Source: Ostreococcus lucimarinus (taxonomy: Eukaryota). From it: a stretch of 64,000 bases of DNA. Positions within the stretch are counted from its first letter, which is position 1; each line of letters begins with the position of its first letter. The notes under the pieces were generated by a model. The model was not told where the DNA came from and did no database searches. It saw only the letters and a program-made list of their open reading frames with translations. The position numbers were made by a program, and so were the translations under genes. Location of the stretch: the NCBI GenBank assembly GCA_000092065.1, contig CP000583.1. One strand, written 5' to 3'. This document shows, piece by piece, positions 8,435 to 61,967 of this stretch.

Positions 8435-8488
8435 ATATTTGCTAACGTTTCTATGACATGATTTTACTACAGTAATTCCAGTACTCCT

Positions 8489-14321: not shown

Positions 14322-14471
14322 CGCGGTTTCTCTCGCCGCTCTCGCGTCGCGTCGTTCGCGTCGCTCGCTCGATCCGGCGTCGTCCGTCGTCCGTCGCGGC
14401 GTCGTCTGGCGGTCGCGCCGCCGCCGCGGCGTCGCGGTGGTTCGTCGCGCGCGCGTCGACCCTCGCGTCAC

Positions 14472-14509
14472 GGTTCGATTTTCGCGATCGAACCTCGACG
14501 CGTCGATCG
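14472..14509. promoter_or_regulatory. Conserved hairpin + palindrome element, copy 1 (Tim13/MFS divergent promoter)
   Basis: GGTTCGATtttcgcgATCGAACC is an 8-bp stem with a 7-nt loop. It is followed by CTCGACGCGTCGATCG, which contains the perfect palindrome TCGACGCGTCGA. A near-identical copy lies at 20088. Confidence 0.5.
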
Positions 14510-14725
14510 CCGCGCGTCGAGCGCGTCGATCGCGCGCGCGACAAAGAGACGCGCTGACTGTTTGCCCACACGCGAGTTCGACGCGCGCGCGAGGGGACCG
14601 ACGCGGCGGCCCGCACTCGACGTCGCGCGCGCGTCGCGGCGACGAGCGCGCGGCGGGAGGCGCGGGAGACGCGTCCGCGAGACGCGCGTCGACGCGGCGA
14701 TTCGATCGACGCGCGCGCGGGCGCG

Positions 14726-23993: not shown

Positions 23994-24449
23994 GAGCGCG
24001 CTCGCGGAGATCTGGTCGTCGAAAGTCGCGCTCGGTCAGCGCCTCGTCGTCGCCTCGTCGGCGCGCGTCCGCGCGTCGCGCGCGCGCGCCTCGACGCGTC
24101 GCGCCGCGGGGCGTCGCGGAGGGCGTCGCGTCGCGCGCGCCGTCGCACCTCGTCGCCGGACGCCGCGCCGGGCGCCATCGCGCGTCGTCGTCTGTCGCGC
24201 GCGTTTCGCGACGCACTGCGCGACGCGCGTCGGGCATGGAGCCGCGCGCGCGCGGCGCGGCGGCGCGGCGGGGGAAGGCCAAGGTGCGCCGCGACGAGAC
24301 GCGCGACGCGCGACGCGCGACGCGCGCGACGAGGGCGCGCGCGACTGATTTCGATTTGATTCGCGACGCAACAGCTCGACGCATTTCGCGCGCGGGAACG
24401 CGGCGACGCGCGCGCGGACGCGTCGAACGATGGACGACGGACGATTGAC

Positions 24450-30000: not shown

Positions 30001-32540
30001 TAAATTTGTGCGCGCTCGACGTCGACACGACAGTGTCTATGACAGTACGACAGTAACTGTAATGGCGATTCATCATCGTCGCCATCGTCGTTGGCATCCA
30101 TGTACAAACCAGTCGCGCGCGCGCACAACGGATGATACGCGATGTAGCAACCCGGATGACAGCATTGGATTTTCGCGCCCATGCGTTGCTTACAGACCGT
30201 GCACAAGAGCGACCAGCGTTCTTTTTGAATGTTTGCGATGTTATCGATGGGCTCCATGCGCTCGATATCAAGCACGGTGGTCTCGGGTATCCATTGGCAG
30301 CACGCGCTGTGCGCCCAGAGCGAAGGAATCGTCGTCGGTTTGAGCGCACCGCCGGCGACGGGACACAAACAACACAAGGGTGTTTCGCTCACTGCACCAC
30401 CGGTGTGCTCGCACGAACGACACAGCCAACCGACGGTGTCGTCTGGTATGTCTGGAACACCGTAGCAAGACTGATGCACCGTCACCGCGCACGCCTCGCA
30501 CGTGATGAGCTGGTCAAAGTCGAAGTCGCGCTCATCGTCGCACACCGCACACCGATCGACGCTCCAACTCACTTGCACGATTTCGTAATCCAGCGAAGCA
30601 TTTTCATCGTCCTCGGTATGTTGATCCCTACGAGCGTTGAAATCATTGCCGTCCAAGAAACGTCCTATGGGCATCTTTGCCGGCTCAATCATTCTCAAAG
30701 ACGCCTTCCACTTTTTCGCTTGCCCCATGCCAGCGTGCTTTTCGAACTCAGTCGGCGTCATGTACTTGTTCGTTCCTGCGCAATCCGAGCATTGACACAT
30801 CACTTGATTCAAGCGCGTGTAATAGTCTGCGGCCACGCCGTTACAAATCACCGCAAGTGTCTCTGGCAACTCGTTCCCGTCGCGAAGCTTGGAAATATCA
30901 CCCGCCTTGGAGCGACGCGACGCCTTGCTCGCATCGGGGTTTCGTTCCGTCTTCACCCTCGCTGCGTGCGCGTCTGGGTTCAAGATTTTATCGTAACGCT
31001 TTCGCTGCTGGTCGTCGAGCTCGCCGCTCTCAAACATCTCCGTGATCATCTCTCTAAATCGCTCCGCCTCATCTCTGGCGAGCTCCTCGTATCTCTCGCG
31101 CTCTGACGCGTCAATCTCGCGCCACGCCGCACCCTGCTCGCGATAGACCGCGGCGAAATCTATGTTATCTTCGCCGTTTTCGTCTTTGTACTGTTGGAAG
31201 AAATCCGCGGCGAAGAGCTGCCACGAACTCTTCGGTCGTTTGGGCACGGTGTTTTGCTTCTTCGACACTGCGTGCGGCGATTTCATCGTCCCCGCTCGCA
31301 CCGAGGCTGAGGAAGAACCCTTTAGGAGTTTATCCAGCGTTGGCATGCGCCTCAGCAGCATTTTAGCCTCTTTCATCTCCTTTGAAGGTCGACCGACTCG
31401 AGGTTTGCTGAGAAGTTTTTCCAAGCGCTTGCGCTCTCGAATCTGCGCCTTGCGTTCAGCCTCGACGCGCGCTTGCTCCGCGAGTCTCGCCTCCGCGGCG
31501 ATCTGCTCGGGAGTTTTACTTCTACACACCGGACACGCGTACGGAATATCCTCATCCTCACCGTTTTGTTCTCTATCCAACACCTCCGCCGCCACGGCGT
31601 CGCATTCGCGATGAATCCACATCTCGCATCGATCGCACCCCACCATGGCGTCGCCCGCGCTCCAGTGCCACACTCGATCGCACACCGGACAGAACTGACC
31701 CTCTTTGTGCAACTTTCTGCACAGCGCGCAGAGCCCATTCGAGTTTTTCGATCGCAACGACTCGTCATCCGTCACGCCGCACGACGCGCACCGACGCGTC
31801 GCCAGCCGCTCCGCCGGCGCGCTGCACGGCAACCCGAACGAGTCCTGTAATCCCAGCACCCCCACCTCGTCTTCGCGCTCGCCCTCGCGCGAGCCATCGT
31901 CGCCGTCGAGCCCCTTCCCGTCCCCCCCCCGATCGTCGGCTCTCCCTTCGCTCTCCGTCGCCCCGACGTCGTCCTCGTCCGCCGCCGCCGCCTCGCGCGC
32001 CTCCTCGCACGCCTCCTCGAACGCCCTCGGTCGCATTCGCTTCGCCACGCGCTGCGCGTCCAACCCTCGTCGCACCCCTCGCGCCCACGCCATCAACCCC
32101 TCCGCGGGCGCCCAGCAATAATCCCTCTCCCGCCCCCGCGTCCCGCTCGGCCCGTAAAACATCACGCAGCAGCACGCCGCCGCGAAATCCCTCCGCACCG
32201 CCTCCGGCGCTCGCCCCACGTCCACGATCACGCCCGGCCACATCGGTTCCCGTCCTCGCGCGCCGACGCCTCGCGCGAACACGACGTCTCCCGCGACGTA
32301 CGACGCGAGCGGCGCCGGCGAATCGTCCGCGTCGTCCGTCGCCCCCCTCGTCGGTCGCGCGCGCGTCGCGCGTCCATCGTCGCCGTCGTCGCCGTCCGTC
32401 CGCGCCGTCGACGTCGACGGCATCGCGACGCGCGCGCCGCCCGCGACGGGCGCGCCCGGGAGCATCGCGCGACGCGACGCGTCGCGAACGCGCGCGCGGC
32501 GCGGCGCGGCCGCGCAATGCGCCGACGTATGAAAACCCAT
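27075..32540 (-). CDS. Trithorax-like histone-lysine N-methyltransferase with PWWP, PHD/ePHD fingers, HMG box, CW-type zinc finger, three SAND-like modules and C-terminal SET + post-SET
   Basis: SET/post-SET at the C-terminus (NHSCNPNMYSKIV...GEELTYNYRF...CYCGADNCRGYL). PWWP (GDVVFARG...PMWPGVIV). PHD fingers (CAVCDDERDFDFDQLITCEACAVTVHQSC; CPVCDRVWHW...CDRCEMWIHREC). HMG box (KRPKSSWQLFAADFFQQYK). CW finger (WVQCENPSCGKWRRV...WTC). Three repeats end in FE.HAGM..KKWK.S.R, which is SAND KDWK-like. Poly-Asp tract. The ORF start is non-ATG. The first ATGs are at 32540, 32465 and 32420, so the start is uncertain. Confidence 0.85.
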   Translation of the reverse strand: MGFHTSAHCAAAPRRARVRDASRRAMLPGAPVAGGARVAMPSTSTARTDGDDGDDGRATRARPTRGATDDADDSPAPLASYVAGDVVFARGVGARGREPMWPGVIVDVGRAPEAVRRDFAAACCCVMFYGPSGTRGRERDYCWAPAEGLMAWARGVRRGLDAQRVAKRMRPRAFEEACEEAREAAAADEDDVGATESEGRADDRGGDGKGLDGDDGSREGEREDEVGVLGLQDSFGLPCSAPAERLATRRCASCGVTDDESLRSKNSNGLCALCRKLHKEGQFCPVCDRVWHWSAGDAMVGCDRCEMWIHRECDAVAAEVLDREQNGEDEDIPYACPVCRSKTPEQIAAEARLAEQARVEAERKAQIRERKRLEKLLSKPRVGRPSKEMKEAKMLLRRMPTLDKLLKGSSSASVRAGTMKSPHAVSKKQNTVPKRPKSSWQLFAADFFQQYKDENGEDNIDFAAVYREQGAAWREIDASERERYEELARDEAERFREMITEMFESGELDDQQRKRYDKILNPDAHAARVKTERNPDASKASRRSKAGDISKLRDGNELPETLAVICNGVAADYYTRLNQVMCQCSDCAGTNKYMTPTEFEKHAGMGQAKKWKASLRMIEPAKMPIGRFLDGNDFNARRDQHTEDDENASLDYEIVQVSWSVDRCAVCDDERDFDFDQLITCEACAVTVHQSCYGVPDIPDDTVGWLCRSCEHTGGAVSETPLCCLCPVAGGALKPTTIPSLWAHSACCQWIPETTVLDIERMEPIDNIANIQKERWSLLCTVCKQRMGAKIQCCHPGCYIAYHPLCARATGLYMDANDDGDDDESPLQLLSYCHRHCRVDVERAQIYAGTEGLKIGQEGRLLECGANKERKRTKAEMRAETEERERREASATLADEPELSSDSETDFMNCAKFRRYEQLGHPRTEADIKDENEENPDAPGSGTKKYRVRKRVLHADDEDENDDDDDDEDDDDDDDMTERADTDMVHTKDDVIAHQRVDTMETTEDLLQDDDDDDDAELSTDLDVEYDADPTDDDDDDNAEGGKTDAEDAVEDADAKLDPSTTFPESKRRKTVSERSESSPQSATLALQAKLPEAKYPALPGGLPVPEGNVPRPDIPEVNIYCKTFRGIFRPADTLIKCLCGRCRREAEATNSDATTLWEANRWEQHAGMKHTKKWKTSIRVVVDDNGGEQAFGDWLTDHNIVVLANTGKTAKVASMSAKPKAQRPKASRTHALLGLGLGTFEDDKLEDKSGEETRARALVGRRVQIDTGTILAPDWKDGTMIDVTITRTGIRYKVIFDDGTDLMISFTRDAQNLKFVDGEAPDLSFLPEAAKLSSGKNTQLETQLAIANAQFTSAKRPSNPADRAKIAELGRPKKPREKEAWVQCENPSCGKWRRVPQSFAEKLSADDADMWTCQKNPEAAFSVCSVPQEFEDDEIDRRIALGDNAPYMEGSDDEESEDEDAVRTHVPDDLPAMVSVVCKGVSGTYHVQTRRIECLCRACVDSDQGPVYHERSRFEAHIGVKGPKKWSHHIRVVLNNRTVMSLGKWLEVWGCEIRREKTVDLSAKSLGHQRNLSRKQLEEIQANVYKRLGLNKNDKNAKVTGPPPKTGKRLYVGLTPYIVRGSRGAFKRELIASKKYTPEEFAAVQAERKARGVNGASDDKVVEQHGLTMREKLEQMTASYSDRLTFAKSNIHGWGLVAKVFHKAGSIVTQFKGETCRSTVADLRETFYEDNGVDCYLLKQDDDTVVDCTFQGNFARFTNHSCNPNMYSKIVKVDDANHIIFFARTDVRPGEELTYNYRFESEDGKVPCYCGADNCRGYLC
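29380..29700 (-). repeat. GAC/GTC trinucleotide-rich tract encoding poly-Asp/acidic stretches in the SET protein
   Basis: Long gtcgtcgtc runs on the plus strand, translated as DDDDDDD.../EDENDDDDDDEDDDDDDD on the minus strand. Confidence 0.8.
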
Positions 32541-33153
32541 CCGAGATCGCGCGCGTGTTTCGGGGCACGAAACACCCGCGCGCGGCGAGAGATTCGATCG
32601 CGCGATCGCCACGTGCCGCGCCGACGGCCGCGCGACGCGCGATCGCGCACACCGCGCTTTTCGAACGCGCAATACGTCGATCTCGGCGAACTTCGCGAAA
32701 TTCGCGCCGCGCGAAAAAAAAAGAAGCGCCGATCCGCAAAGACGGAAAAGATTTTCTCGCGCGCGCGATCGGATCTCGAACGCGGGGGATTCGCGCGATC
32801 GACGACGTGAGGTTCGCGCGCGATCGATGATCGCCGACTCCAGGGTCGCGCGATCGCGCGATCGATCGATCGCGCGCGCGTGCCGCGCGCGGCCGACCGC
32901 GCGCGCGCGGCCTTTCGGAACCCGCGGGCGCGCGCGCGGGAGACGACGACGCGCGAGGCGCGCGGGCGAGCGCGAGCGCGGGCGCGAGCGCGCGCGGGGG
33001 GGTTCGGTGCGAAAAAATTCGCGCGCGGCGACGTCGAGGCGCGGGCGCGGAGACGCGGTCGGCGACGGCGCGAGGGCGGTGGCGATTCATCCATCCATCG
33101 CGCCATCGAGCCATCGAGCCATCCATCGCGGCGCGGCGGGCGAGACGGGGGGC

Positions 33154-39647: not shown

Positions 39648-41609
39648 TTAAAGATTCCTCAACAACGTTTCGAGTTTAGTCATCGTCTCCTCCGAAAGCG
39701 CGGACGATGGGTTAGTGTTAATATACTCTAACTCCTCGCGCATTGTTTCTGTCGCGCGCTTGACCGCCTTGGCGAGCATATCTTCGACTTCTTCCGCAGT
39801 CTTATTGTTCGCGAAACCTTTTTGGATGGCAAACAAACCGACGGTTTGCTCGGCGAGCGACGCGACCTCTCCTTGCTTTTGCTTGAGGAAACCACGAATG
39901 GCCTCGGAGCGGCTACGAAGCTTGCTTTTTTCTGTTCCAGCGCTACCAAACGTACCCATGTCGTCCGATTGCATCAAATCGAGGCGAAGTTGAAGAAAGT
40001 TGAGCGAGCGGAAAGGCCCCGCAGCGCCCGGCGCGCCGATGCGACTCACCGAATCTTTCGCGCTGATGATCCATCCTTTCGCCGGATCGTACGAATCGAC
40101 AAAAACTTGACCATCAGTGATGGACATGAACTCTTCGACCATCGGTCGCGACTGCACGAACGCGGACTCGGGAAATTCGTCATCCGCCGTGGATACGTGC
40201 GCCGCCTTGGCTTTTTCCTCGAGCGCCTTGCGCAGCTTCTCTTGCACGGCGGCAGGCATGGAGTCGAAACCCTTGATCGATTCGACGCTGCTCGGGAGCA
40301 CAGCGCCACCCGAACCGGCGCCTTCGACCCCAGATTTGAACGTCTTCTTGTACGCCCCCTTCGGATGGTACATGACGCCCATGAGCGTGATGGACCCACC
40401 CTTGAGTTCGTCGTTCATTCTAGCAACGCGTTGGAGCGTCATACCTAAGAATCTGCGACGTTCGGCGAGTGAAGCGGAAATCAACATGCCCTCGTACTCT
40501 TCCATTTGCTCTTCCGTACCCTCGGCGACGTTCAACTGCGGTGCCATGCGCGCCATATCCTTGGTGAAGTTGACCAAGCCGGTGAAATCGTCGAGCACCA
40601 AGAGGACGTCTTCGCCCAAAGCACGCGCGCCCTCCGCGATGGCGAACGCCGTGCACGTGGCCGCGTAGCGCTCGGCCTCGCTCGGTTCATCGTCCACGGT
40701 CACGATCGTGGTGTGCGACATCGCCCCGTCTCCCTCTAATCGCTTCGCGACTTCGTCGACGCGAGACGCCTGGGCGCCCAGCGCCGCGTACACGCACCGC
40801 ACGCCCGTACTCCTTTGCGCCACGATCGATGTCAATCCGAGCTCGGAAAGTCCCGTTCCCGGTTCACCGCTCACCAGCATGCACTGCCCGCGCCCGACCG
40901 GGGCCAATAAATCCACAGCCTTGATCCCCGTCACGAGCGGCGTCGTGATCGGCTTTCTTTCCTCCACGCTCGGCGGTTCGCGCATCATCTTCGACGAATC
41001 CTCCGTTCCGGTCACCATCGCCGACCCATCCCTCGCCTCCCCGAACGCGTCCACGATCTTCCCTCGCGTCGCCCTCGCGCTCGGTCCCCACACGAACTCC
41101 GTCTTGCTCGCCTCCGCCGTCTTCCCCACCGCCCTCGCGCCGTCGCCCGTCCGTCGCCGCTCCCCTCCCTCGCCGCCGTCGAACATCAGCGCGAACGTCT
41201 TCGGTTCCCGATGGCTCAGCAGCACCGCCCGTCCGCCATCCGCGAATCGCAGCACCGCTCCCGGCGGCGCCGCGCTTCGCATGCCCTCCAGCGCGACGAC
41301 GCCGCCCCGCTCCGCCCGCGCGCACGTCCCGCTGAAATTCTTCATCCGATCCTCGTCCTCCACGCTCTCCACCGTCGGCGCCGCGCTCGATCGCGCGTCC
41401 TCCGGCACGGGTTTGCCCGCGATTCGCGCCCGCGCCACCGCCTCGGTCCCGCGCGCGCGCCGCGAGACGCCGTCGCCGCGATCGCCCGGTCGGCGGCGCG
41501 TCGCCGCGATCGTCGCCGTCGCGTCGCGTCGCGCGGGCGCGGCGCGGCGCGCGACGGCGCGACACGCGCGCGCGAGCGTCATCGCGCGATGCGGCGCGAC
41601 GGCGAGCAT
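39648..41609 (-). CDS. ATP synthase F1 alpha-subunit-like paralog with degenerate P-loop
   Basis: Alpha-type architecture is present: N-terminal beta-barrel region, ITTPLVTGIKAVDLLAPVGRGQ, VLLVLDDFTGLVNFTKDMA, SITDGQVFVD and DSVSRIGAPGAAG. The Walker A position reads GEPGTGLS in place of the canonical GDRQTGKT, so the lysine is lost. ATG 41609 with an Arg/Ala-rich leader. Confidence 0.7.
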   Translation of the reverse strand: MLAVAPHRAMTLARACRAVARRAAPARRDATATIAATRRRPGDRGDGVSRRARGTEAVARARIAGKPVPEDARSSAAPTVESVEDEDRMKNFSGTCARAERGGVVALEGMRSAAPPGAVLRFADGGRAVLLSHREPKTFALMFDGGEGGERRRTGDGARAVGKTAEASKTEFVWGPSARATRGKIVDAFGEARDGSAMVTGTEDSSKMMREPPSVEERKPITTPLVTGIKAVDLLAPVGRGQCMLVSGEPGTGLSELGLTSIVAQRSTGVRCVYAALGAQASRVDEVAKRLEGDGAMSHTTIVTVDDEPSEAERYAATCTAFAIAEGARALGEDVLLVLDDFTGLVNFTKDMARMAPQLNVAEGTEEQMEEYEGMLISASLAERRRFLGMTLQRVARMNDELKGGSITLMGVMYHPKGAYKKTFKSGVEGAGSGGAVLPSSVESIKGFDSMPAAVQEKLRKALEEKAKAAHVSTADDEFPESAFVQSRPMVEEFMSITDGQVFVDSYDPAKGWIISAKDSVSRIGAPGAAGPFRSLNFLQLRLDLMQSDDMGTFGSAGTEKSKLRSRSEAIRGFLKQKQGEVASLAEQTVGLFAIQKGFANNKTAEEVEDMLAKAVKRATETMREELEYINTNPSSALSEETMTKLETLLRNL

Positions 41610-41722
41610 GCCGACGCGCGCGCGTCGTCGCGGTGTGCGGCGGCGCCGTCGCGCGCGCGTCGGCCGCACTCGCGCGCGCGCCGAAGCGCCGCGCCGCGAC
41701 GACGCGACGCCGCGACGACGCG

Positions 41723-42568
41723 ATGGCGAAGAAGAAGGCGTCTCGAACGTCGCCCGCGGTCGAGCGCGCGCCGGCGCGCGCGAGCGACGGCGCGACGGCG
41801 ACGACGGGCGCGAACTGGGCGGCGCTGAAAAAGCGCATCAACGCCGGCGCGTCGAGCGCGGCCAAGGCGGCGGCCGCGGCGCGACGCGCGCTGGAGGACG
41901 TCGACGATGCGACGCGAACGCGCGACGGCGGGCGCGACGCGAGCGCGACGCCGAGGGCGACGGGACGGAACACGGCGGTGACGGCGGTGCTGGCGCTGGA
42001 CTGCGAGATGGTCGGCGTCGGCGCGGACGGGAAGCGGTCGATCCTCGCGCGAGCGTCCATCGTGAACGAGGATGGGAACGTGATCATGGACGCGCACGTG
42101 CTGCCGACGGAGCGGGTGACGGATTACAGGACGGCGGTGTCGGGGGTGCGAGCGAAGGATTTGACGGCGGCGAACGGCGCGGTGGCGTTTAAAAAGGTGC
42201 AGGCGCAGATGAGCGAACTGCTGAGGGGACGGATATTGGTGGGGCACTCCTTGAAGAATGATATGCGGGTGCTGATGCTGGATCATCCGAAGCGAGACAC
42301 GCGGGACACGAGTTTGTATCATCCGCTGACGAGGCCGTTGCGGCCGGAGGAGCGGTGCGTTCCGGGCGCGCCTCGCGGTCGCGGATGTCGCGCCCTGCGC
42401 GATCTCGCGCGGCAGCATTTAGGGTTAGAGATTCAAAAGGGCGAGCACTCCTCCGTGGACGACGCGCGGGCGACGTTGGCGCTGTATAAAAAGTTTGCCA
42501 AGCGGTGGGAGAGCGCGCTGCGCCGCGCCGACGGTAGAGACAAATTCAAAAAGCGTCGCGTCGACTAG
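41723..42568 (+). CDS. REX4-like DEDDh 3'-5' RNA exonuclease
   Basis: TAVLALDCEMVGVGADGKRS...ILVGHSLKNDMRVLML...EHSSVDDARATLALYKK. ATG 41723. Confidence 0.75.
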   Translation: MAKKKASRTSPAVERAPARASDGATATTGANWAALKKRINAGASSAAKAAAAARRALEDVDDATRTRDGGRDASATPRATGRNTAVTAVLALDCEMVGVGADGKRSILARASIVNEDGNVIMDAHVLPTERVTDYRTAVSGVRAKDLTAANGAVAFKKVQAQMSELLRGRILVGHSLKNDMRVLMLDHPKRDTRDTSLYHPLTRPLRPEERCVPGAPRGRGCRALRDLARQHLGLEIQKGEHSSVDDARATLALYKKFAKRWESALRRADGRDKFKKRRVD

Positions 42569-52210: not shown

Positions 52211-55200
52211 CTACAGTACGGACTCAAGAGACCGGTTGGGGGGCAGCAGATCAGCCATTTCGCTCTTCAAACGCTCGAGAGCGTCCGCGTACGAAATGTG
52301 CGCGTTCTCTGTCTTTTTGCTCAACAACCTCCGCCAGCGAGCAAACAATGCCTCCAACGTTCGGGCACTACGAACGTAAGGAAGCACGACTTCCCACACG
52401 TACCGCATATTTTCCGTGCCCAGCCAGGTTGTTCTGTCCACCTGGAACGCACCCGCGCCGCCGCCTTTTTCGGCGAGCGCGGCCAAGGCGAACGCGATGA
52501 CGGCGTCTTCGAGGTCCGACCACATAAGATCGCCGGACCGCGTCTCGCCGTGCTCGTCGATGAGTCGCTTCGCGTTCTCGAGGAGCGCCTTGGCCTGAGC
52601 GTCGAGCGTCGCTTTTTTGTCCCTCTCTTTGGGCTCGATGTCCTCGTACTTCGCCGTTTCGCTCTTCAAACGCTCGAGAGCGTCCGCGTACGAAATGGAA
52701 TTGTTCTCTGTCTTTTTGCTCAACACCTTCCGCCAGCGAGCACACAATGCCACCGGCATTCGGCCACTACGAACGTAAGGAAGCACGACTTCCCACACGT
52801 ACCGCATATTTTCCGTGCCCAGCCAGGTTGTTCTGTCCACCTGGAACGCACCCGCGCCGCCGCCTTTTTCGGCGAGCGCGGCCAAGGCGAACACGATGAC
52901 GGCGTCTTCGAGGTCCGACCACATAAGCTTGCCGGACCGCGTCTCGCCGTGCTCGTCGATGAGTCGCTTCGCGTTCTCGAGGAGCGCCTTGGCCTGAGCG
53001 TCGAGCGTCGCTTTTTTGTCCCTCTCTTTGGGCTCGATGTCCTCGTACTTCGCCGTTTCGCTCTTCAAACGCTCGAGAGCGTCCGCGTACGAAATGGAAT
53101 TGTTCTCTGTCTTTTTGCTCAACACCTTCCGCCAGCGAGCACACAATGCCTCCGACGTTCGGGCACTACGAACGTAAGGAAGCACGACTTCCCACACGTA
53201 CCGCATATTTTCCGTGCGCAGCGCGGTTGTTCTGTCCACCTGGAACGCACCCGCGCCGCCGCCTTTTTCGGCGAGCGCGGCCAAGGCGAACGCGATGGCG
53301 GCGTCTTCGAGGTCCGACCACATAAGATCGCCGGACCGCGTCTCGCCGTGCTCGTCGATGAGTCGCTTCGCGTTCTCGAGGAGCGCCTTGGCCTGAGCGT
53401 TTAGCGTCGCCTCCGTACTCGCCCCCACTTCAGGGCGGAGCACGTATTTTTCAGCAATGCTCGCGTACTTGGCGTCGTATGTGTCTCCGTTCGCCGCGGC
53501 GAGAAGAACGCCAAAAATCAGGCGACGCATGTTCAATTGTTTGCCCGCGCGTGCGTCGACATCGCTGTACGCAGCCGCGAAGTTCTCTTTCGAGAATTTT
53601 GCGACATCGACTTTTTTGTCCGTCGATTCCATGCGACTTCGCCAGAACGTTATGAACCATGTGATTGGGGCGGACAAGCCCCCTCGAAGCAACTCTCGTA
53701 ATTGTCGTGCATTGATTGCGTCACTCTCGCGGGCGGATGCGGTTTCCACGCGCGCTACCGAACGCGCTTCCTCGGGTGAAAGCGTACCCTCGGCGCTGTG
53801 AATCAAAACGAGTAGTGAACGCAGCGCCTGCGGATACCGAATCCAATGAGCGACGAGTCGTCCGCTCAAGGCGTCACCGTACTGTGATGTCTTCGTGTGC
53901 ATCTTCGTGATCCTATATAGCTCCATGTAGACCGCCTTACTTGGCAGAATTATTTCTGCGTCGCGAAACCAAATTTCCAGCGCCGCTTCGAGACGGTCGG
54001 GTTGGCTTCGGCAAGCTTCTCCCAGGAACGCCGTAAGGAATTCCTTGTTACCCAGCGAATCGATGAGAGCGCGCGCATGACCGCCGTTTGCGTCAAAACG
54101 GAGCAAGTCTCGAAATAACGAGAGGATTGCGCCGTCTTCAATGTCGCACGCCTTCTCGTCGCCGCCGAAGAAGCGCGCCGTGAGCGACCGCGAGGACGGC
54201 TGCGCGCCCGATCCATTTCCGTTCGAGACCGCCTCGGCGCCCGCCAAAAGATCGACAAAGGCACTCCAAAAGTTTTGCGTGAAGAAAACGAGCAGCCGAT
54301 TTACTAGGTCAGGCGAGACTGTCGAGTCGGCAAAGATCGTCTCGTGACGTGCGAGCACTATGCTGCTCATGGTGCGTACCGCAGTCGCGGCGCGGTCGGT
54401 GTCTTCTCCGTAACAGCGCAGCACCCACGGGTTTGTGGCGAAGCCGGCAGTGTCTGCCATGGAGACGACCGGCACCTTGCGGTGACCGGCGATGCGAATG
54501 CCCGGCGTCGCTCGGTTCAAGGCCCACGTCGAACCCAGCTCGATCCACGTTTTCAGAAAATAGGTCCAGACTATTTCAACAAACATTCCATCGAACGCGC
54601 CCAGAGCAGCGAGCGCGTGCATTCGTACGTATTTCGGCTTGTTCGACTTGTGCGTCGCGCGGTACTCGAGGACAAAGGCCACGAATGCGCTGAGCAGTCG
54701 TCCCATTCGACGTCTCGTCGGGTGAGTGATGGCGTGGAACCGGACGTTGGCGTCGACGATAGGTTCCCAGCACTTTGATGGATTGCCGCTCACCGTGAAG
54801 TCGACGTAACGGACGAGCGTGTTGTCTCTCGCTCGAATGTGCGCTTGCTGCGCGTTGTCGCCGTCACTAATGAGGTAGTTTCGATGCTCTCCCAAGCGTG
54901 TTGAAAACCAGCGCTCCGATTCGCCGACGTACGCGCCTTCATCGGACCGCACCAGCCACACGTACGCGTTGACCGGCTCAGCGTACAACCTCGCCTTCAG
55001 GTCGCCGCGCGAGTCGCGATGTTCTCGAGACTTCAACCAATTCGATAACGTTCGTAGGTGCTCCATGAGTTCTAGCGCCCCCGACTTGTCGTCACCCAGC
55101 GTCTCGCCGACGTCGTAAAATTGCTCCACAAAAAAAGCCGGGACGTGCGTCGTACTAAAGTACGTGTGGCGCCAGGTTGACGTGTCCGCTAGATGTCCCG

Positions 55201-56821
55201 CAACTGAGGCGTCTTGAGTATCTCTGCGCTGCGCGCCGATGATGTCGCCGCTGAGCGTTTGGATGGGTGTGTCGGCGCCGCTCACCCAGCCAGGCACGCG
55301 AGCGACTTCTCGTAGGAAGGATTTGATGCTTTCGTCGCTGGCATCCTTCGGGTCGAAGGCGTCCTTGAATCCAACGAGAGGGAAGCACTCGCAGCGGTCG
55401 AGAAAAGTTAACATGGCGTCCTTCGCCTTGGACATGTTGTCCCCATCGGCGAGCCACTGCTCGGCGTCGAGCACGAACTCCTCTAAAACGGGAGACAAGT
55501 TCGCCTCGAAGTGGACGTCAAGCACCCCGCGAATCTTTGCGTTTGCGTCGTACATAGCCTTCGCGCTCCCTGCGATCGCGGGACCTACGAATCGTCGCGC
55601 GCGCGATTCCAGCGAATCATCTGAAACCTCCACCGCCGGCGCCGGGGACGGCGTCGCCGGTTTATGGGTTTGGCGACAATGGTCTAGAATTTCGCGTCGC
55701 CAATCGGTCATCTTAATAGAGCCGAATTTGGCGCGCACGTGCGCGACCTCTGCCCCTTCCCCTTCCTTCTCCTCTTCCCCTTCTTCTTCCCCTTCCCCTT
55801 CGTCTTCGTGTTCGTCTTCGTCTTCGTGTGCATCTTCGTCTTTGTCTTCGACGAATCCGTCTGCGAGTGGGGCGAACAAGTTACCGCGCGACTTGGCGCG
55901 ACGACGCGGGCGACACGCCCGCCCCGTGTGCAACTCTCGTACCGTGCCACCCGGCGACTGCTCGTGCTGCGCATCACTCTCGGCGTAGGTCGGCGAGGCG
56001 TGAAATTGTGCGGCTCGCTTGCCTGTCGCCGCCAGGATCGGAGGACTCTGCGGTTCGTCGTCACCGACCGCGTGCGCTGATGCCATCATTCGACACAAGG
56101 CGACGTCCATCGCCGTTCTCTCAATGATTTGGTCCGCATCGGCGCGGCCGCGCAACATCGCTCCGAGCGTGCCCTGAACGTCGTTCCGAGCTCGTTGAAG
56201 CGTCTCTTCGTCGGGTTCGTCGGGTTCGTCGGGTTCGGCGGGCGCGGTGCGCGGTTCGATCGATTCGTAGTGCATCTGCGCACGCTCGCCACCGCTGAGA
56301 ACGAGCGTTACGTCGATCGTAGCCTCTTCCGGCTCGATGATGACGTCGGCGTCTCCGTCGGGCGTCGCAGACAAACTGTCCGATATTACGCGCACGCGCA
56401 TCTTGTGCACGTCGGCCAACGCCATGAGCGAGAATTCGTCGCCCCACTTGCCCCCGAGCTGACCCAGGCTTGCGCACTCGGCCAGAAACTCCTCGCGTAT
56501 CTCACCCTCACTGAGATCTTCACGTCCTGCACCGTTCGCTGTATCGAGAAAACCGATGCGCACCGGCACTATATCGTCGTCGTCGACGCGACGCTCCAAC
56601 CAGGCCGCGGCTTGGTGGCGTAAAAGTTCCACCGACACTTCGCGTTCGGGATCGGTTCGTCCTATGGCGGCGACAATCGCGTGGAACTGGCAGTCGCCCC
56701 CGCCCTCGGTGGTGACTCTCTGGACGCGCTCACGGATGAGGCGCCGCTCCAACCGACCTAGTCGCGCTTCGCCGTAGAGGCGCGGGTGACGTTTTCCCCA
56801 CTCCGCGAGAACGTCTGCCAT
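52211..56821 (-). CDS. Giant OTU-domain (deubiquitinase-like) protein with acidic tract and triplicated C-terminal 133-aa module
   Basis: OTU Cys box (GGGDCQFHAIVAAIG) and His box (QMHYESI) near the N-terminus. Poly-D/E tract. About 1000 aa of unassigned sequence. Three near-identical C-terminal repeats. First ATG 56821; the ORF extends to 56854 with a non-ATG. Confidence 0.65.
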   Translation of the reverse strand: MADVLAEWGKRHPRLYGEARLGRLERRLIRERVQRVTTEGGGDCQFHAIVAAIGRTDPEREVSVELLRHQAAAWLERRVDDDDIVPVRIGFLDTANGAGREDLSEGEIREEFLAECASLGQLGGKWGDEFSLMALADVHKMRVRVISDSLSATPDGDADVIIEPEEATIDVTLVLSGGERAQMHYESIEPRTAPAEPDEPDEPDEETLQRARNDVQGTLGAMLRGRADADQIIERTAMDVALCRMMASAHAVGDDEPQSPPILAATGKRAAQFHASPTYAESDAQHEQSPGGTVRELHTGRACRPRRRAKSRGNLFAPLADGFVEDKDEDAHEDEDEHEDEGEGEEEGEEEKEGEGAEVAHVRAKFGSIKMTDWRREILDHCRQTHKPATPSPAPAVEVSDDSLESRARRFVGPAIAGSAKAMYDANAKIRGVLDVHFEANLSPVLEEFVLDAEQWLADGDNMSKAKDAMLTFLDRCECFPLVGFKDAFDPKDASDESIKSFLREVARVPGWVSGADTPIQTLSGDIIGAQRRDTQDASVAGHLADTSTWRHTYFSTTHVPAFFVEQFYDVGETLGDDKSGALELMEHLRTLSNWLKSREHRDSRGDLKARLYAEPVNAYVWLVRSDEGAYVGESERWFSTRLGEHRNYLISDGDNAQQAHIRARDNTLVRYVDFTVSGNPSKCWEPIVDANVRFHAITHPTRRRMGRLLSAFVAFVLEYRATHKSNKPKYVRMHALAALGAFDGMFVEIVWTYFLKTWIELGSTWALNRATPGIRIAGHRKVPVVSMADTAGFATNPWVLRCYGEDTDRAATAVRTMSSIVLARHETIFADSTVSPDLVNRLLVFFTQNFWSAFVDLLAGAEAVSNGNGSGAQPSSRSLTARFFGGDEKACDIEDGAILSLFRDLLRFDANGGHARALIDSLGNKEFLTAFLGEACRSQPDRLEAALEIWFRDAEIILPSKAVYMELYRITKMHTKTSQYGDALSGRLVAHWIRYPQALRSLLVLIHSAEGTLSPEEARSVARVETASARESDAINARQLRELLRGGLSAPITWFITFWRSRMESTDKKVDVAKFSKENFAAAYSDVDARAGKQLNMRRLIFGVLLAAANGDTYDAKYASIAEKYVLRPEVGASTEATLNAQAKALLENAKRLIDEHGETRSGDLMWSDLEDAAIAFALAALAEKGGGAGAFQVDRTTALRTENMRYVWEVVLPYVRSARTSEALCARWRKVLSKKTENNSISYADALERLKSETAKYEDIEPKERDKKATLDAQAKALLENAKRLIDEHGETRSGKLMWSDLEDAVIVFALAALAEKGGGAGAFQVDRTTWLGTENMRYVWEVVLPYVRSGRMPVALCARWRKVLSKKTENNSISYADALERLKSETAKYEDIEPKERDKKATLDAQAKALLENAKRLIDEHGETRSGDLMWSDLEDAVIAFALAALAEKGGGAGAFQVDRTTWLGTENMRYVWEVVLPYVRSARTLEALFARWRRLLSKKTENAHISYADALERLKSEMADLLPPNRSLESVL
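52264..53440 (-). repeat. Three tandem copies of a 399-bp unit (about 99% identical) inside the OTU-protein CDS
   Basis: Antisense ORFs 52368..52745 and 52767..53144 are identical apart from 2 residues. A third copy follows from 53166. The protein module ATLDAQAKALLENAKRLIDEHGETRSG...ISYADALERLKSE occurs three times. Confidence 0.9.
55752..55860 (-). repeat. GAA/GAG-rich simple repeat encoding a poly-Glu/Asp tract in the OTU protein
   Basis: cccttccccttccttctcctcttcc... on the plus strand, translated on the minus strand as EDEDEHEDEGEGEEEGEEEKEGEG. Confidence 0.8.
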
Positions 56822-56854
56822 GCCTCCCCGCCTCGTCTCCGCCTCGTCTGTCAC

Positions 56855-58600
56855 GCTTCCCCGTTCCGTCGGATGCGAAAACTTTCAAGAATGTGTTTTG
56901 ATATCACCCTTCTTTCCAGGGTAGAAACGCGCGTCAGTCGCGTCGTCGTCGTCGCCGCCTCGCGCGAACCTCGCGCGAACGTGTCCCTTCGCCTCCGAGG
57001 ACGCAATCGCTCGTGCGCGCGCGCGTTCGTCGCCGCGCGCGTTCGCCGCGGACGCGGCGGAGAGAACGCACGACGTTTTTCGTGACACGCGCTCGACACG
57101 CGCGCACCGCTCGCGCGCTTCCGACGCGCGCGTGGGCGGTTTCGAGCGCGCGGCGCGATCGTCCCTCGTTTCTCCGTAACGCATCGACGCTCGAGATGCG
57201 CGAACGAGACGCACGACGACGTACCGCTACCGCTACCGCTGCCGCAACCGCTATCGCGTACGCGCGCTCGCTGCGTGCTCGCTTCTTGCAATCGCGAGAA
57301 AGTGCGGCCACGAACGAGCGCCGGGTTCCTTCTGGATGAAAACGCCGATTCGTTGACCCGCCCGCCTCCCTTTTTCTGTTTTTTGCTTTTCGCCGCGATG
57401 TTTTCGCGCTTGAGAACCCGAAGCCGAGGACCGCGCCGAATCGACGCTCGCACGGGCGCCGACGCGCGTCGATCGGCGCGGCGCGATCGCGCAATCGCGC
57501 GAACGCGCGTCGACGCGCGTTCGTCGACCCCGCGATCGCGCGAACGGACGCGCGCGCGCGCGAACGCGCGCCATTCCCGACGCTCGCGCGTCGTTAACAA
57601 CGTCGCGTTCTTCGCACGCGCGCGTGGATTCGCGCGACGTGCGACGTCGGGCGCGCGCGAGCGCGCGCGACACGCGTCGATGACGGCATCGCGCGCGCGC
57701 CGACGCGCGCTGGACGCGCGGCGCGCGGAACGCGCGCCGTCGTCGCGAGTAATGTCGCGAATCGCCGCGCGCGGCGACGCGCGCGCGGCGTCGCACACGC
57801 GGGTGTGCGCGCCGTCGCACAAAGCGCTCGGCGACGCATTATACGAGCGGCGCGTCGGCGCGACGCCGCGTCGCGCGCGGTCGCGGACGAGCGCGTGCGA
57901 GCGGGGCGTTCGGAAGCGTGACGGGTGCGGACGCGTCGCGCGCGTCGTTCGCGCGGATGCGCGCGCGCGCGACGCGACGACGCGCGCGCGAATGTACGAC
58001 GATCGATTCGCGACGCTCGCGCGACGCGCTGGGCGTCGCGCGAGCGCCGCGCGGACGCGCGCTCGAGCGCGATGCGCGCGGCGATCGCGAAGACGAAACC
58101 TCGCTCGATCGCGCGCGCGCCTCGAACGCGCGCGCGCGTTCGGCGCCGAACGCGCAGCGCGCTGTGTCGCGCGCGCGCGGACGCTCGACGTGCAGATCGC
58201 CGCGCGCGCGATAAGGGTAAGTTCGTCGCGCGCGCGTCGGACGACGCGCGCGCGGCGATTTTCCGTGCGCGCGACGCGCGTTTCGCGCGTAGCGGCGCGC
58301 GCGGCGCGCGCTTCGACCGCGAAGCGCTCGATGCGCGCGCGCGCTCGAGCGAGGTTGCGTCTTCGCGACGCGCGCGACGATGCCTCGCGCGCGTCGCGCG
58401 CCGTCGCGCGCCGAACCGGCGCGCGACGCGAGCGCGAACGGCGTCCCGCCGACGCGCACTGCGCTGTTTGCGCCCACCGTGGAGACCGGCGACCGCTTCC
58501 GCGTCGACGCGAGCGTGCGAACGCACACCGCTGAAGGCGGGCGAGCGTGGACCCCGTACTCGCCGGGGCGCGACGACGCGCCGTGCGTGGTCGGGTTCGG
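56855..58600. repeat. About 1.7-kb CpG-dense, T-poor low-complexity tract (degenerate CGCGCGA/GACGCG repeats) between divergent genes
   Basis: The tract is nearly devoid of stop-forming triplets, so both strands give long Arg/Ala ORFs. There is no protein-like composition. Confidence 0.7.
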
Positions 58601-59939
58601 CGTCGTTCAAGCGGACTCTCGCATCGCATCCGAATACGACGAAGAATTGCGCAAAGCGCGCAAGTTGCGGCGAAAGCTCGGCCTAGAGCTCGTGATGGAT
58701 GTGCGCTACGCCCGAAATCGCGGGACGGTGCAGACGACCATGTCCGTGGAGACGTTCATCGATGGCGCGGGCGCCGCCGGGACGATCTTCGGGACTCGAA
58801 GTCAAAGATTCAGATTCGTCGAAAACGCGATTCGACGGCGATACCCGCGGCGCGCGCGCGCGCAAGACGACGACGACGGCCCTCCGTGCGACGCGGACGC
58901 CGCCGTCGCGTGGCTGCTCCGACAACCGCACGATTCGCGAGACAGTATCCTCGTCGAATTCGATCGCGATACCGTGCGCAAGCCTTCGTTTCCGTATCGC
59001 GTGGTGTACGAGAGCGAGTCCGGCGACGAAGGCGCGTTCGGATGCGCGCTCACGGAAGCTGAGTTCGCCGACTGGTTAGGCGGTTGGCGTCCGCCGCCGG
59101 CCGCGAATCTCGACGAATTCTTCGCGATCCTGCGGACGATGAACGTCGATTTGAGCGGCATCGATACCGTCAGGACGCGGTGGCTATGTTTTGAAATTGG
59201 CAGTGGATGGGCGAACGTGTCCCTGGCTTTAGCGGAAACGCTCGGCGACGACGTATTGTGCATCGCGATGGACCCGAAGGAAGGGCTGGAATCGACACGC
59301 GCGAAGAACCACCCGCGCGTGCTCATTCTTAACGAAGACGTGTGGGATGCCCAATTCTTCATGGACGTCAGAAGAGCCACCGCTGGGCGCGTGCTTCACG
59401 CGCACGCGTCGCCGCTGTGTAAGTATTACTCCACGGAGCAGCGCCCGAGGCGAAAAAATCTACGCGACCGCGGATTGCAGCACGTGATTGATGAAGAGCT
59501 GCTGCACGCAGACTCCATGGTGACTGTGGAAGTCGACACGTTACGACTGCTAAATCCGCTTAGCATCAGCGTGGAGAACCCGCACAACGACGCGGATGGC
59601 ATCGGCTCGCGATGCGATCTCTTGTCCGACGTGTACGCAATGCTCGACTTCCTCGTGAGGTGGAGCGTGAGCTACTGCCACTTCACAAAGGGCGAGATAC
59701 GGAAGCACACCGACCTGTACGTCACCCGCAATCTGTACGACGTCATGAAAGAGGCGAAATGGAAGGGCCTGTGCACGTCGAGGTCGCCGTGCGCGTACCG
59801 TCGCCGATCGGGGGCGAGGCAGCACAAGTCTGGCGTTCAAAACCAAAAGGGATCGGCGAAAAAAGGGAGAATCCCTTTAGCGCTCGCTCGCGACCTCGCC
59901 AAGCACGTCGGCGTTCTCAAGACGGGCGTCGCGCGTTGA
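58380..59939 (+). CDS. Divergent DNA (cytosine-5) methyltransferase-like protein (DNMT6-like?), tentative
   Basis: Motif I-like LCFEIGSGWANVSLA. Catalytic PC-like HASPLCKYYS. Motif VI-like ISVENPHND. The 5' part of the ORF lies in the CpG tract, so the true start may be downstream (for example near MDVRYARNRG). Confidence 0.4.
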   Translation: MPRARRAPSRAEPARDASANGVPPTRTALFAPTVETGDRFRVDASVRTHTAEGGRAWTPYSPGRDDAPCVVGFGVVQADSRIASEYDEELRKARKLRRKLGLELVMDVRYARNRGTVQTTMSVETFIDGAGAAGTIFGTRSQRFRFVENAIRRRYPRRARAQDDDDGPPCDADAAVAWLLRQPHDSRDSILVEFDRDTVRKPSFPYRVVYESESGDEGAFGCALTEAEFADWLGGWRPPPAANLDEFFAILRTMNVDLSGIDTVRTRWLCFEIGSGWANVSLALAETLGDDVLCIAMDPKEGLESTRAKNHPRVLILNEDVWDAQFFMDVRRATAGRVLHAHASPLCKYYSTEQRPRRKNLRDRGLQHVIDEELLHADSMVTVEVDTLRLLNPLSISVENPHNDADGIGSRCDLLSDVYAMLDFLVRWSVSYCHFTKGEIRKHTDLYVTRNLYDVMKEAKWKGLCTSRSPCAYRRRSGARQHKSGVQNQKGSAKKGRIPLALARDLAKHVGVLKTGVAR

Positions 59940-60157
59940 GTTTCTACCCGTCAACCCGTGTACGTCGCAAAGCGACCGTTCGAATCCAGCGAGCCTCTCC
60001 GTAAGGTATAGCACACGCATGTTCACCCAGAGACACCCAGTGGCAAAATGGAATTGTTGAAGAGAATGTCAATGGATTGCGAGAGAATGCTACAAGAGTG
60101 CCGCGGCGTTGGCGCAACCCGAGAAGAGGAATCGTCGTCGAGCGTGGTGGTGATGTG

Positions 60158-60265
60158 CTTAAATAAGATATCAATCGCGCTCGAAAGCTTAAATAAGATA
60201 TCAATCGCGCTCGAAAGCTTAAATAAGATATCAATCGCGCTCGAAAGCTTAAATAAGACATCGTG
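60158..60265 (+). repeat. 30-bp tandem repeat cttaaataagatatcaatcgcgctcgaaag, 3.6 copies
   Basis: Perfect copies at 60158, 60188 and 60218, plus a partial fourth copy. The repeat sits inside an AT-richer island. In the 60048..60269 ORF frame it encodes (LNKISIALES)n. Confidence 0.9.
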
Positions 60266-60907
60266 GTAGATACATCAGTGCTACTAAATACATATACCCG
60301 AGTGTCCGATAAACAGGACGCGCGCGCGGAGGAGATGCGACGGATGGTGGAGATTGAGGCGTCGGCGTCGGCGTCGGCGTCGCGGCGCGTGTCTCGCGAC
60401 GACGCGAAGGATTCGTATCCGGTAGTGGTCGTCGCGAGGGAGAGACCGCGCGATACACGACGAGTGGAGGAGCTAGAAACTGAACTTAAAAAGTTACAGG
60501 CGAAGAGCGAGCGGCAGACGAAGAAGATCAACGCGCTCAAGGAGGAGCTCGCGACGGAACGAAGGGCGCGCTCCAACGAGTTGCAGACGGTGCGCGCAAA
60601 ACACGAGCGCGAAATGCGCGATCTGGTCGCGTCGGTGAGCGGGGTGCAGAAATCAAATGTTCAACGGCGACGTCGGGTGAGTTCGAACGAGTATCCGCCG
60701 CCGCCTTCGAGGATAGTATCGGGCGCGGACGAGTTTGATGCGTTCATCGCATCGTTTCACGCTTTACCTTCGTCTCGCCTTCGCCCTCGCCTTCGCGTCT
60801 CGCCCTCGCCCTCGCGCGTCCGATCGGACAATCGGACCGTCGGATCGACGTCGATCCGTCCGAGATTTCCGAGACGCCCCGAGACGGCGATCGAGGATTC
60901 ATCGTGA
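60263..60907 (+). CDS. Possible coiled-coil protein (N-terminal ~130 aa plausible; remainder may be non-coding or another frame)
   Basis: EELETELKKLQAKSERQTKKINALKEELATERRARSNELQTVRAKHEREMRDL looks like coiled-coil. The start is non-ATG. It may be spliced to the upstream 60048..60269 ORF. Confidence 0.25.
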   Translation: MVDTSVLLNTYTRVSDKQDARAEEMRRMVEIEASASASASRRVSRDDAKDSYPVVVVARERPRDTRRVEELETELKKLQAKSERQTKKINALKEELATERRARSNELQTVRAKHEREMRDLVASVSGVQKSNVQRRRRVSSNEYPPPPSRIVSGADEFDAFIASFHALPSSRLRPRLRVSPSPSRVRSDNRTVGSTSIRPRFPRRPETAIEDSS

Positions 60908-60967
60908 TCGTCATCTCGCGACGCCGCGCGATCGCGATCGCGACGCGCGCCGCGCCCGGACGCCGAC

Positions 60968-61967
60968 GATGAAACCGTCCGACGGCGTCGACGTCGCGCG
61001 CCGCGCGTCGTCGACGTCGCCGCCGCGCACGCCCGAGCGCGACGCGACGATCGCGCGGCGACCGCGGCGCGACGATGCGACGGTGCCGACGACGACGACG
61101 ACGGACGCGACGGCGCGAGCGCGCGCGGACGCGAGCGAGTGGTTGGAATTCGACGGCGCGCGCGACGACGGGCCGCTGGAGGGGTTTCCGTACGAACTCG
61201 GGGCGCTGGACTCGGGGCGCGGACGAATCGCGTCACGCGCGTCGACGCGCGCGATGGCGCTCGAGGGCGCGTCGGGGACGAGCGACGGCGCGGTGAAGTC
61301 GAACGCCGGTGATTTCGCGACCGACGACGGCGCGACGGAATGGGACGCGATGTGGTCGCGCGGCATCGAGCGCGGGCAGGCGTTCGATTGCAGTCGAACC
61401 GAACCCGCGTTTGAGCGGTTTTTGAGCGCGCGCGCGGCGACGGGACGGGGCGCGAGCGCGCTCGTGCCGGGCTGCGGGCGCGGGTACGCGCTCGCGTCGC
61501 TCGCGCGCGCGGGATACGAGGTTTGCGTTGGTCTGGAGATCTCGAACACGGCGCGCGCGAGCGCGTTGGAACACCTGAAGACGGAGGACGTGCCGTCGAC
61601 GGCGGTGGTGGAGGTGATGGTGGAGGATTTCTTCGCGTTCGCGCCCGAGGAAAAATTTGATTTGTGCTACGACTGCACGTTTTTGTGCGCCATCGATCCG
61701 CGGCGACGCGAGGAATGGGCGCGCGTGTACGCCAATTGCGTGAAACCTGGCGGTATTTTGGTGTCCGTGGTGTTTCCGTGTGGGGATTTCGAGGGTGGTC
61801 CGCCGTACGCTTTGACGCCGGAAATCGTGCGCGACTTGCTCGCGCCCGTCGGTTTCGAAGAAGTGTCGCTGGAAGAAACGCCCGCGGAGCTCTACGCGCG
61901 AGGACGCTTGGAATATTTACACGTTTTTAAGCGAAGTGCGTTAAGCGAAGTGCGTAGCGTAGCGTAG
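60968..61967 (+). CDS. Thiopurine/halide (HOL-like) S-adenosylmethionine-dependent methyltransferase, TPMT family
   Basis: LVPGCGRGYALASLARAGYEVCVGLEIS...FDLCYDCTFLCAIDPRRREEWARVYANCVKPGGILVSVVFP...GGPPYALTPEIV is collinear with plant HOL/TPMT. Long Asp/Thr/Ala-rich N-terminal extension from ATG 60968. Confidence 0.75.

Follow-up and report, generated by a model that had tools for sequence, protein, structure and literature searches.

Ostreococcus and its relatives carry dense CG methylation in nucleosome linkers that is maintained by DNMT5, and they serve as models for unusual eukaryotic methylation. Here we describe a gene of the green picoalga Ostreococcus lucimarinus CCE9901 at positions 58380-59939 (+ strand) of a 64,000-nucleotide stretch of its nuclear DNA (contig CP000583.1, assembly GCA_000092065.1; this whole stretch is called the window). 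The encoded protein is identical to XP_001416586.1 / A4RU05 (519 aa), which is annotated in databases only as a "predicted protein". Fold modeling and profile alignment place its C-terminal 280 residues in the cytosine-C5 methyltransferase superfamily as a compact Rossmann-type domain. Judged by sequence, its closest annotated relatives are phage proteins of ~220 aa named "C-5 cytosine-specific DNA methylase I" (gp140 of phage JBP901; PHROG 757). Our analysis shows a conserved, selected gene with a C5 methyltransferase fold that inventories based on PF00145 or BLAST can miss. Its product belongs to a compact, phage-type branch of the C5 methyltransferase superfamily, for which we can point to no earlier named representative among eukaryotes.

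Canonical C5 DNA methyltransferases (PF00145), among them M.HhaI, M.HaeIII, DNMT1, DNMT3A/B and the DNMT5 catalytic domain, share ~10% identity with the window protein. Compared with these enzymes, the compact clade has SP-x-C for x-P-C-Q, ENP for ENV, K-x-T for Q-x-R-x-R and x-R-I-P for G-N-x-x-P, and its target-recognition domain is cut to ~45 residues with conserved cysteines. DNMT6, which occurs in diatoms, haptophytes, kinetoplastids and Micromonas, resembles the window protein's family in being a stand-alone C5 methyltransferase-type domain of microalgae that lacks chromatin-reader domains, but it keeps the FAGIGG / FPCQPFS / LLENV motifs. The "orphan" eukaryotic DNMTs of viral or bacterial origin (Mol Biol Evol 2025, PMC12344493) are likewise lineage-restricted, stand-alone proteins with viral nearest relatives and an unsettled choice between DNA and RNA substrates. 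They were defined by PF00145 matches with E<1e-4, whereas the window protein has no PF00145 match even at E<=10.

The gp140-like phage proteins are similar to the window protein from end to end, sharing motif I, ASPxCxxYS, IENP, YCx[FY]G...KxTD, C..[SA]PC and RIPxxL. gp140 (YP_009149178.1, 221 aa) also has a minimal segment instead of a target-recognition domain and carries all eight residues that are invariant in the family. The phage proteins consist of the bare ~220-aa domain, whereas the algal proteins add an N-terminal region of 240 residues. gp140 passes PF00145, the window protein does not, and His482 is unaligned in gp140. A protein of similar size is encoded by Tetraselmis virus 1, a giant virus of a green alga. 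Among viral models, no structural match over the full length was better than this putative cytosine DNA methyltransferase (A0A2P0VN45, 218 aa; TM score 0.68 on target length, E 3e-7), but it is only 14% identical to the window protein in the structural alignment. In the JBP901 genome (L067, 89230-90919 region), gp140 lies between two full-length C5 methylases of 340 and 332 aa and beside a DNA polymerase gene, so that three cytosine methylase genes stand in a row.

The gene and its methyltransferase-fold domain

The gene is a single uninterrupted exon of 519 codons plus a stop codon. Its product can be aligned from the first residues on with P0002 and P0003, two orthologues of 60% and 48% identity. 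Several open reading frames (ORFs) in the window match annotated O. lucimarinus proteins exactly. The neighboring genes are typically eukaryotic, coding for BEACH/WD40, RabGAP and PWWP-HMG-SAND-PHD-SET proteins, a proteasomal AAA ATPase and a TPMT. A literature search for papers citing the XP_001416586.1 / A4RU05 accessions found none. The Arg/Ala-rich N-terminus (residues 1-60; 58380-58559) was modeled with predicted local distance difference test (pLDDT) scores <30, and its RAPSR and ALFAPxVETGxRFxVDxSVR strings are partly conserved among Ostreococcus orthologues. Residues 61-240 (58560-59099) occur only in two algal clades, A and B, and are missing from phage gp140 and from the short metagenomic fragments P0136 and P0139. 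Model confidence in this region is low to moderate, with a beta-rich part at 69-122. No known domain was found there, the sole Pfam match being noise, and the region is possibly a targeting module.

The C5 methyltransferase-fold domain comprises residues 241-519 (59100-59936). Modeling the full-length protein with AlphaFold from three sequences gave a pLDDT of 44.5, too poor for use. An AlphaFold2 model of residues 235-519 built from a 12-sequence alignment reached a pLDDT of 79.9 and a predicted TM score of 0.82. We compared this model to the PDB using Foldseek. The best 50 of the 58 matches with E<=0.001 were all DNMT1, DNMT3, MET1, ZMET2, M.HaeIII or DNMT2 entries (best E 6.9e-6), and the matches among viral models included cytosine methyltransferases, one of them the Tetraselmis virus 1 protein. 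In the model, Cys347 directly follows the fourth strand (338-343), and the fifth strand (395-399) ends with Glu399. Next come a beta hairpin (425-431 / 443-449) and, at the end of the chain, a long helix (500-518). The order of motifs IV, VI, VII/VIII and X is thus the canonical one.

Profile-profile alignment points to the same superfamily. We built a canonical profile from 20 sequences: M.HhaI, M.HaeIII, human DNMT2 and 17 phage C5 methylases from viral contigs. The first three sequences were confirmed against PF00145 (E 1e-107, 4e-109 and 2e-41, respectively). Using hhalign, the family of the window protein aligned with this profile at 93.6% probability (E 2.1e-7, 225 columns), and a three-sequence version of the profile gave 81%. 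The motif I-like loop FEIGSGWANV (59190-59219), which follows strand beta1 and would bind S-adenosylmethionine (SAM), contains the nearly invariant G276, and its FEIGSGW pairs with LFAGLGG of HhaI. Asp298 (59271-59273), at the end of beta2 in the motif II position, pairs with HhaI E40. This position is D or E in 10 of 12 aligned family members and a gap in the two short fragments. Asp320 in the NEDV string (59337-59339) takes the motif III position and pairs with the GDI Asp of HhaI. In the motif IV variant HASPLCKYYS (59403-59432), Cys347 (59418-59420) is aligned with the catalytic Cys81 of M.HhaI, and in the motif VI variant SVENPHND (59568-59591) E399-N-P, with its invariant Glu, is aligned with E119-N-V.

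The remaining motifs of the domain are more divergent. The motif VII/VIII-like beta hairpin SYCHFTKGEIRKHTDLYVT (59670-59726) contains the invariant Cys433, Lys442 and Thr444 and has no Q-x-R-x-R. R441 pairs with HhaI R163. Where canonical enzymes have a target-recognition domain, the window protein has a Cys-rich segment of ~46 residues (59727-59864, pLDDT mostly 75-92) with the invariant Cys465 and Cys471 and the near-invariant His482. The motif X-like segment GRIPLALARDLAKHV... (59865-59933), which forms the C-terminal helix, is aligned with the GNSV motif of HhaI, G-R-I-P pairing with G-N-S-V. Taken together, the fold and family membership of the domain are well supported.

These results bear out the general part of the original prediction, which had read the gene as coding for a divergent C5 cytosine methyltransferase-like protein from three motifs in canonical order. 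FEIGSGWANV, HASPLCKYYS and SVENPHND were confirmed at residues 271-280, 342-351 and 397-404. The question it raised of whether the Cys of SPLC sits in the catalytic loop is answered by the place of Cys347, which comes immediately behind strand beta4, and the ENP Glu likewise occupies its canonical position, at the end of beta5. The PF00145 match that it proposed to look for was absent, but the profile-profile link to C5 methyltransferases was found.

Relatives of the window protein and their detection

The family is small and hard to detect. Among 5.8 billion proteins searched, no more than four clusters matched, and every one of them comes from marine metagenomes. These are P0001 (99% identical to the window protein), P0002, P0003 and the frameshifted P0004. 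A hidden Markov model (HMM) run exhaustively against 1.84 billion cluster representatives retrieved just 14 proteins. Clade A consists of the Ostreococcus orthologues, clade B of P0131-P0135, which came from the HMM search and are 20-25% identical to the window protein, and P0136 and P0139 stand beside both clades as short outliers. Clade B has a more canonical-looking motif IV (SPPC), and one of its members is present as an MMETSP transcript. A second, word-index homologue search with a 10-sequence alignment returned close relatives only, probably because low-complexity words crowded the candidate list.

Clade B provided the connection to phages. Its proteins match PHROG 757 "DNA methyltransferase" (E 1e-10 to 8e-6) and also PHROGs 363 and 116. 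M.HhaI matches the latter two at E 1e-58 and 3e-91, which identifies them as C5-methylase PHROGs. A tblastn search of phage genomes with P0133 led to Bacillus Bastille-like phages (E 1e-6), in which the matching genes are named "C-5 cytosine-specific DNA methylase I" and one of them codes for JBP901 gp140. With 34.9 bits over motifs I-VI, gp140 exceeds the gathering score of PF00145. A family HMM built without gp140 matched it at E 2.1e-28, and a profile of clade A alone aligned with it in hhalign at 97.7% (E 1.5e-12, 204 columns). These two matches indicate that the window protein is a member of the compact clade.

We defined a signature for the clade from our alignment. P345, C347, E399, C433, K442, T444, C465 and C471 do not vary in any of the 12 sequences, gp140 among them. 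Conservation extends to G276, D298 and D320, and H482 is near-invariant across the family. The window protein carries the full signature: [AS]-S-P-x-C-x-x-[YH]-[ST], E-N-P, Y-C, K-x-T, C-x(5,6)-C and [RK]-[IV]-P. The conservation of Cys433, Cys465, Cys471 and His482 suggests a possible zinc site.

Detection by a canonical C5 profile declines stepwise across these relatives, from gp140 (E 3e-13) through clade B (3e-7 to 2e-4) to clade A (0.3-1). The window protein itself scored E 0.47 against our canonical profile. Surveys based on PF00145 with thresholds of E<1 or E<1e-4 could not have found the gene because it has no match even at E<=10. DNMT inventories of Ostreococcus and its relatives rest on PF00145 or BLAST, and such inventories can miss a selected gene with a C5 methyltransferase fold and an intact Cys/Glu/SAM site.

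The original prediction had tentatively suggested DNMT6 as the class of the gene, and on this point our comparisons disagree with it. DNMT6 has been described as a canonical stand-alone DNMT domain and reported as absent from Ostreococcus. The O. lucimarinus DNMT inventory (eLife 2023 supplement) lists DNMT5 and "DNMT6-like" accessions, and XP_001416586 is not among them. Our own comparison used one partial DNMT6 sequence, the Thalassiosira pseudonana fragment XP_002287631 from the eLife 2023 alignment, which has canonical FAGIGG / GFPCQPFS / LLENV motifs. This fragment scored E 2.5e-28 on the canonical C5 profile versus E 0.73 on the family HMM, and hhalign gave it 0.7% against the family and 0.1% against clade A alone. 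We reject a DNMT6 identity on the basis of the canonical motifs of DNMT6, its lack of a family-profile match, its reported absence from Ostreococcus and the inventory without XP_001416586.

Probable catalytic activity and alternative explanations

We compared the window gene to its orthologues for signs of selection. The ratio of nonsynonymous to synonymous substitution rates (dN/dS) was 0.40 in the comparison with P0002, 0.32 with P0003 and 0.26 for a pair of clade A alleles, indicating purifying selection on a fast-evolving gene. GC content at third codon positions (GC3) is 0.76, equal to that of the neighboring host genes, so recent horizontal transfer is unsupported by composition. The gene probably encodes an active cytosine-C5 methyltransferase-like enzyme of the compact phage-type clade, and catalytic activity on nucleic-acid cytosine appears likely. 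Purifying selection, host-like GC3, the MMETSP transcript and the conserved SAM-binding and catalytic residues favor an active enzyme over a pseudo-enzyme.

The proposed mechanism follows that of C5 methyltransferases with several substitutions. The motif I loop (G274/G276) would bind SAM together with Asp298 and Asp320. Once a cytosine has been flipped into the pocket, the thiolate of Cys347 would attack C6 while Glu399 protonates N3, and the methyl group would then be passed to C5. The role of the Q-x-R-x-R arginines may fall to the invariant Lys442 and Thr444, and that of a full target-recognition domain to a short Cys-rich segment with a possible zinc site (Cys433/Cys465/Cys471/His482). 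Because that domain is lacking, the expectation is either that specificity is low or short, or that it comes from the 240 N-terminal residues found only in the algal proteins or from a partner protein. The gene itself is an old and fast-evolving inhabitant of Ostreococcus genomes with a host-like composition, and its origin probably lies in a phage or virus-type source. If active, the protein would enlarge the set of methylation enzymes known from the smallest free-living eukaryotes. It would moreover be a naturally occurring C5 methyltransferase without the Pro-Cys dipeptide, without R-x-R and almost without a recognition domain, and as such relevant to mechanism and engineering.

A number of observations count against this reading of the gene. 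The residue before the catalytic Cys is Pro in 20/20 canonical enzymes and L, S, P, E, C or D in the 12 family sequences. The invariant Pro of the family (Pro345) lies two positions before the Cys, and the window protein has Leu346 at position -1. Motif VI reads E-N-V in 20/20 canonical enzymes versus E-N-P in 11/12 family members, and Pro replaces Val in the window protein. Both arginines of Q-x-R-x-R in motif VIII are present in 20/20 canonical enzymes, and the family instead has [RQ]-K-x-T-D with K and T invariant. Within the I-R-K-H-T stretch of the window protein only R441 has a canonical partner, in a part of the alignment with low confidence; its position is Q, K or M in some members, and the R165 position is variable. 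Only ~45 residues (450-495) separate the motif VIII strand from the motif X helix, leaving no real target-recognition domain. Searches of Pfam and NCBIfam with the window protein gave no match even at E<=10, PHROGs and PADLOC gave none, and PDB sequence searches returned noise only. A profile of clade A alone reached only 10.6% probability against canonical C5 methyltransferases, which makes the link to them transitive or structural. The alignment behind the domain model held only 12 sequences, and residues were equated by profile alignment and by the order of secondary-structure elements rather than from coordinates. To our knowledge, no member of the compact clade has a solved structure or a demonstrated activity, and we know of no biochemical study; a PDB search for sequence relatives of gp140 found no solved structure.

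An alternative that we regard as unlikely is that the gene is cargo of a mobile or virus-derived element, acting as a selfish or protective methylase or as half of an antiviral or restriction-modification-like module instead of regulating host chromatin. Phage and giant-virus proteins are its closest relatives, flanking genes vary between Ostreococcus-like contigs, and methylase-carrying transposons have been described in an O. lucimarinus virus (PMC3627910). A clade B paralogue lies on a 2,467-bp segment that is 97% identical between two contigs (L069 8877-11343 and L070 9236-11703; also in L071) with otherwise unrelated flanks, in one of them beside a protein with a TnpB/Fanzor-like C-terminus. 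The segment has sharp ends, the right one ~45 bp past the stop codon at an AT-rich "TTATATAAGTATATA" string, and the clade B gene is 98% identical in L070/L071. Its presence in unrelated flanks suggests that at least clade B recently moved or was duplicated. Against the cargo explanation stand the host-like GC3 of the window gene, its single copy in the window, and the purifying selection on its orthologues, which occur in at least three Ostreococcus-like lineages. No terminal inverted repeats were found at the ends of the 2,467-bp segment, and around the window gene there were only CGCG low-complexity matches. Neither the window domain nor P0136 turned up a relative when a viral contig collection was scanned, and no nuclease domain could be demonstrated in the large neighboring protein. 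Phage kinship and the relocated copy bear on how viral methylases enter eukaryotic genomes.

The 1434-aa protein beside the relocated clade B gene (L070 4752-9056, - strand) deserves separate mention. Its C-terminus resembles a TnpB/Fanzor-type zinc ribbon and RuvC motif ("CPCCC...", "NRDVYASINM"), with a PF07282 match at E 0.007, below threshold. It may represent a Fanzor-like gene in a Mamiellales-like genome.

It is unlikely that the protein is a pseudo-enzyme or regulatory paralogue that keeps the C5 methyltransferase fold without methylating, for example as a DNMT3L-like subunit for DNMT5, for the DNMT6-like enzymes or for the large neighbor. The PC Pro, the ENV Val and the R-x-R arginines, each invariant in the 20 canonical enzymes, are all replaced, the target-recognition domain is lacking, and dN/dS is relatively relaxed (0.26-0.40). 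However, algal and phage members with an overall identity of 20-25% share, as invariant or conserved residues, Cys347, Glu399, the motif I Gly, Asp298 and Asp320. Degenerate pseudo-enzymes usually lose precisely the residues for chemistry and cofactor binding. The deviations are moreover common to the whole clade, including its presumably functional phage members. The original prediction had mentioned a catalytically altered paralog as a further option; the lack of conservation of the PC Pro and the Q-x-R-x-R arginines speaks for it, and the invariance of Cys347, Glu399 and the SAM-binding acidic residues across the family speaks against it. We likewise think it unlikely that an active enzyme would use its DNMT-type mechanism on RNA, as a tRNA or rRNA cytosine-C5 methyltransferase resembling DNMT2/TRDMT1. 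A generic SAM-dependent Rossmann methyltransferase with coincidental PC/ENV-like strings is already disfavored and highly improbable, the signs in its favor being that the only match of a single-sequence PDB search was a weak one to the rRNA methyltransferase ErmAM, over motifs I-III (E 1.8), and that P0132 has a weak RrnaAD match (E 0.003).

The divergent neighbor and flanking sequences

The window gene is divergent from a large ORF of 1547 aa (52211-56854, - strand). The N-terminus of its product has a weak OTU-like cysteine protease match (residues 51-158, E 0.002, below threshold) and the protein contains an acidic low-complexity stretch, without any confident domain. At its 3' end the ORF contains 2.9 copies of a 399-bp tandem repeat with 96% identity (52254-53410), which encode repeats of ~133 aa. 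An orthologue of the protein has a weak Rap1-Myb match. A GIY-YIG nuclease, which would suggest a restriction-modification pair, was considered from a string noticed by eye ("YVWLVRSDEGAYVGES...R..EH"). It was not supported: hhalign gave 0.04% against I-TevI, UvrC and SLX1 sequences, and a PDB profile search came back empty.

A CGCG-rich spacer of 1.5 kb (56855-58379) separates the two genes and is presumed to be a bidirectional promoter region. GC content is 0.77 over 57600-58499, and 57501-58500 is the 1-kb stretch of the window with the highest CpG content (307 CpG per kb, observed/expected 2.08). Other CpG-rich stretches of 1-2 kb lie at ~1500-4500, 14000-15000, 23500-25000, 32000-33000 and 41000-42000. 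Most metagenome contigs with the gene stop 0.2-1.9 kb upstream of it, and in the P0002-like species all stop inside the GC-rich spacer, so assemblies seem to break there.

The pairing with the large gene recurs in two other types of algal contig. In L004/L005, a large-gene homologue (50% identity) is divergent from the clade B gene P0131, and a clade A gene follows 1.3 kb downstream on the same strand. L004 thus holds both clades flanking the large OTU-like gene (416-1897, - strand; 8361-10073, + strand), the clade A paralogue being 47% and P0131 24% identical to the window protein. In L069, a large-gene homologue (45% identity) is divergent from the clade B gene P0135. The divergent position beside the large gene is occupied by clade A in O. 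lucimarinus and by clade B in L004, and the remaining flanking genes differ among the three loci. This recurring linkage suggests a functional pair, with conserved local synteny as an alternative reading, and the methyltransferase-like protein may act with the product of the linked large gene.

We can extend this to a broader proposal, which as a whole we consider improbable. Mamiellales might have domesticated a minimal cytosine methyltransferase family from a phage or virus, with two paralogous clades and a re-wired active site (SP-x-C / ENP / K-x-T, and possibly a zinc-stabilized mini recognition element). Together with the adjacent large OTU-like, repeat-bearing protein, it would form a DNA-marking module of a kind not seen before, which every PF00145-based DNMT census has missed. 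Such a module could provide a de novo or self-marking activity that feeds DNMT5, or the modification arm of a defense against prasinoviruses. We offer the role in de novo methylation or antiviral defense, the zinc binding and the partnership with the neighbor as hypotheses.

Three further features of the window may be noted. Just downstream of the gene, a locally AT-rich patch contains 3.5 copies of a 30-bp tandem repeat (GCTTAAATAAGATATCAATCGCGCTCGAAA; 60157-60262) that are 98% identical. Positions 27075-32672 (- strand) hold an ORF for a chromatin-type protein of 1865 aa that unites PWWP, HMG box, SAND, PHD, zf-CW and SET domains. At 60735-61967 (+ strand) lies a gene for a TPMT-family methyltransferase (PF05724, E 1e-25) with an Arg/Asp/Thr-rich N-terminal extension of ~200 residues and an uncertain start codon.

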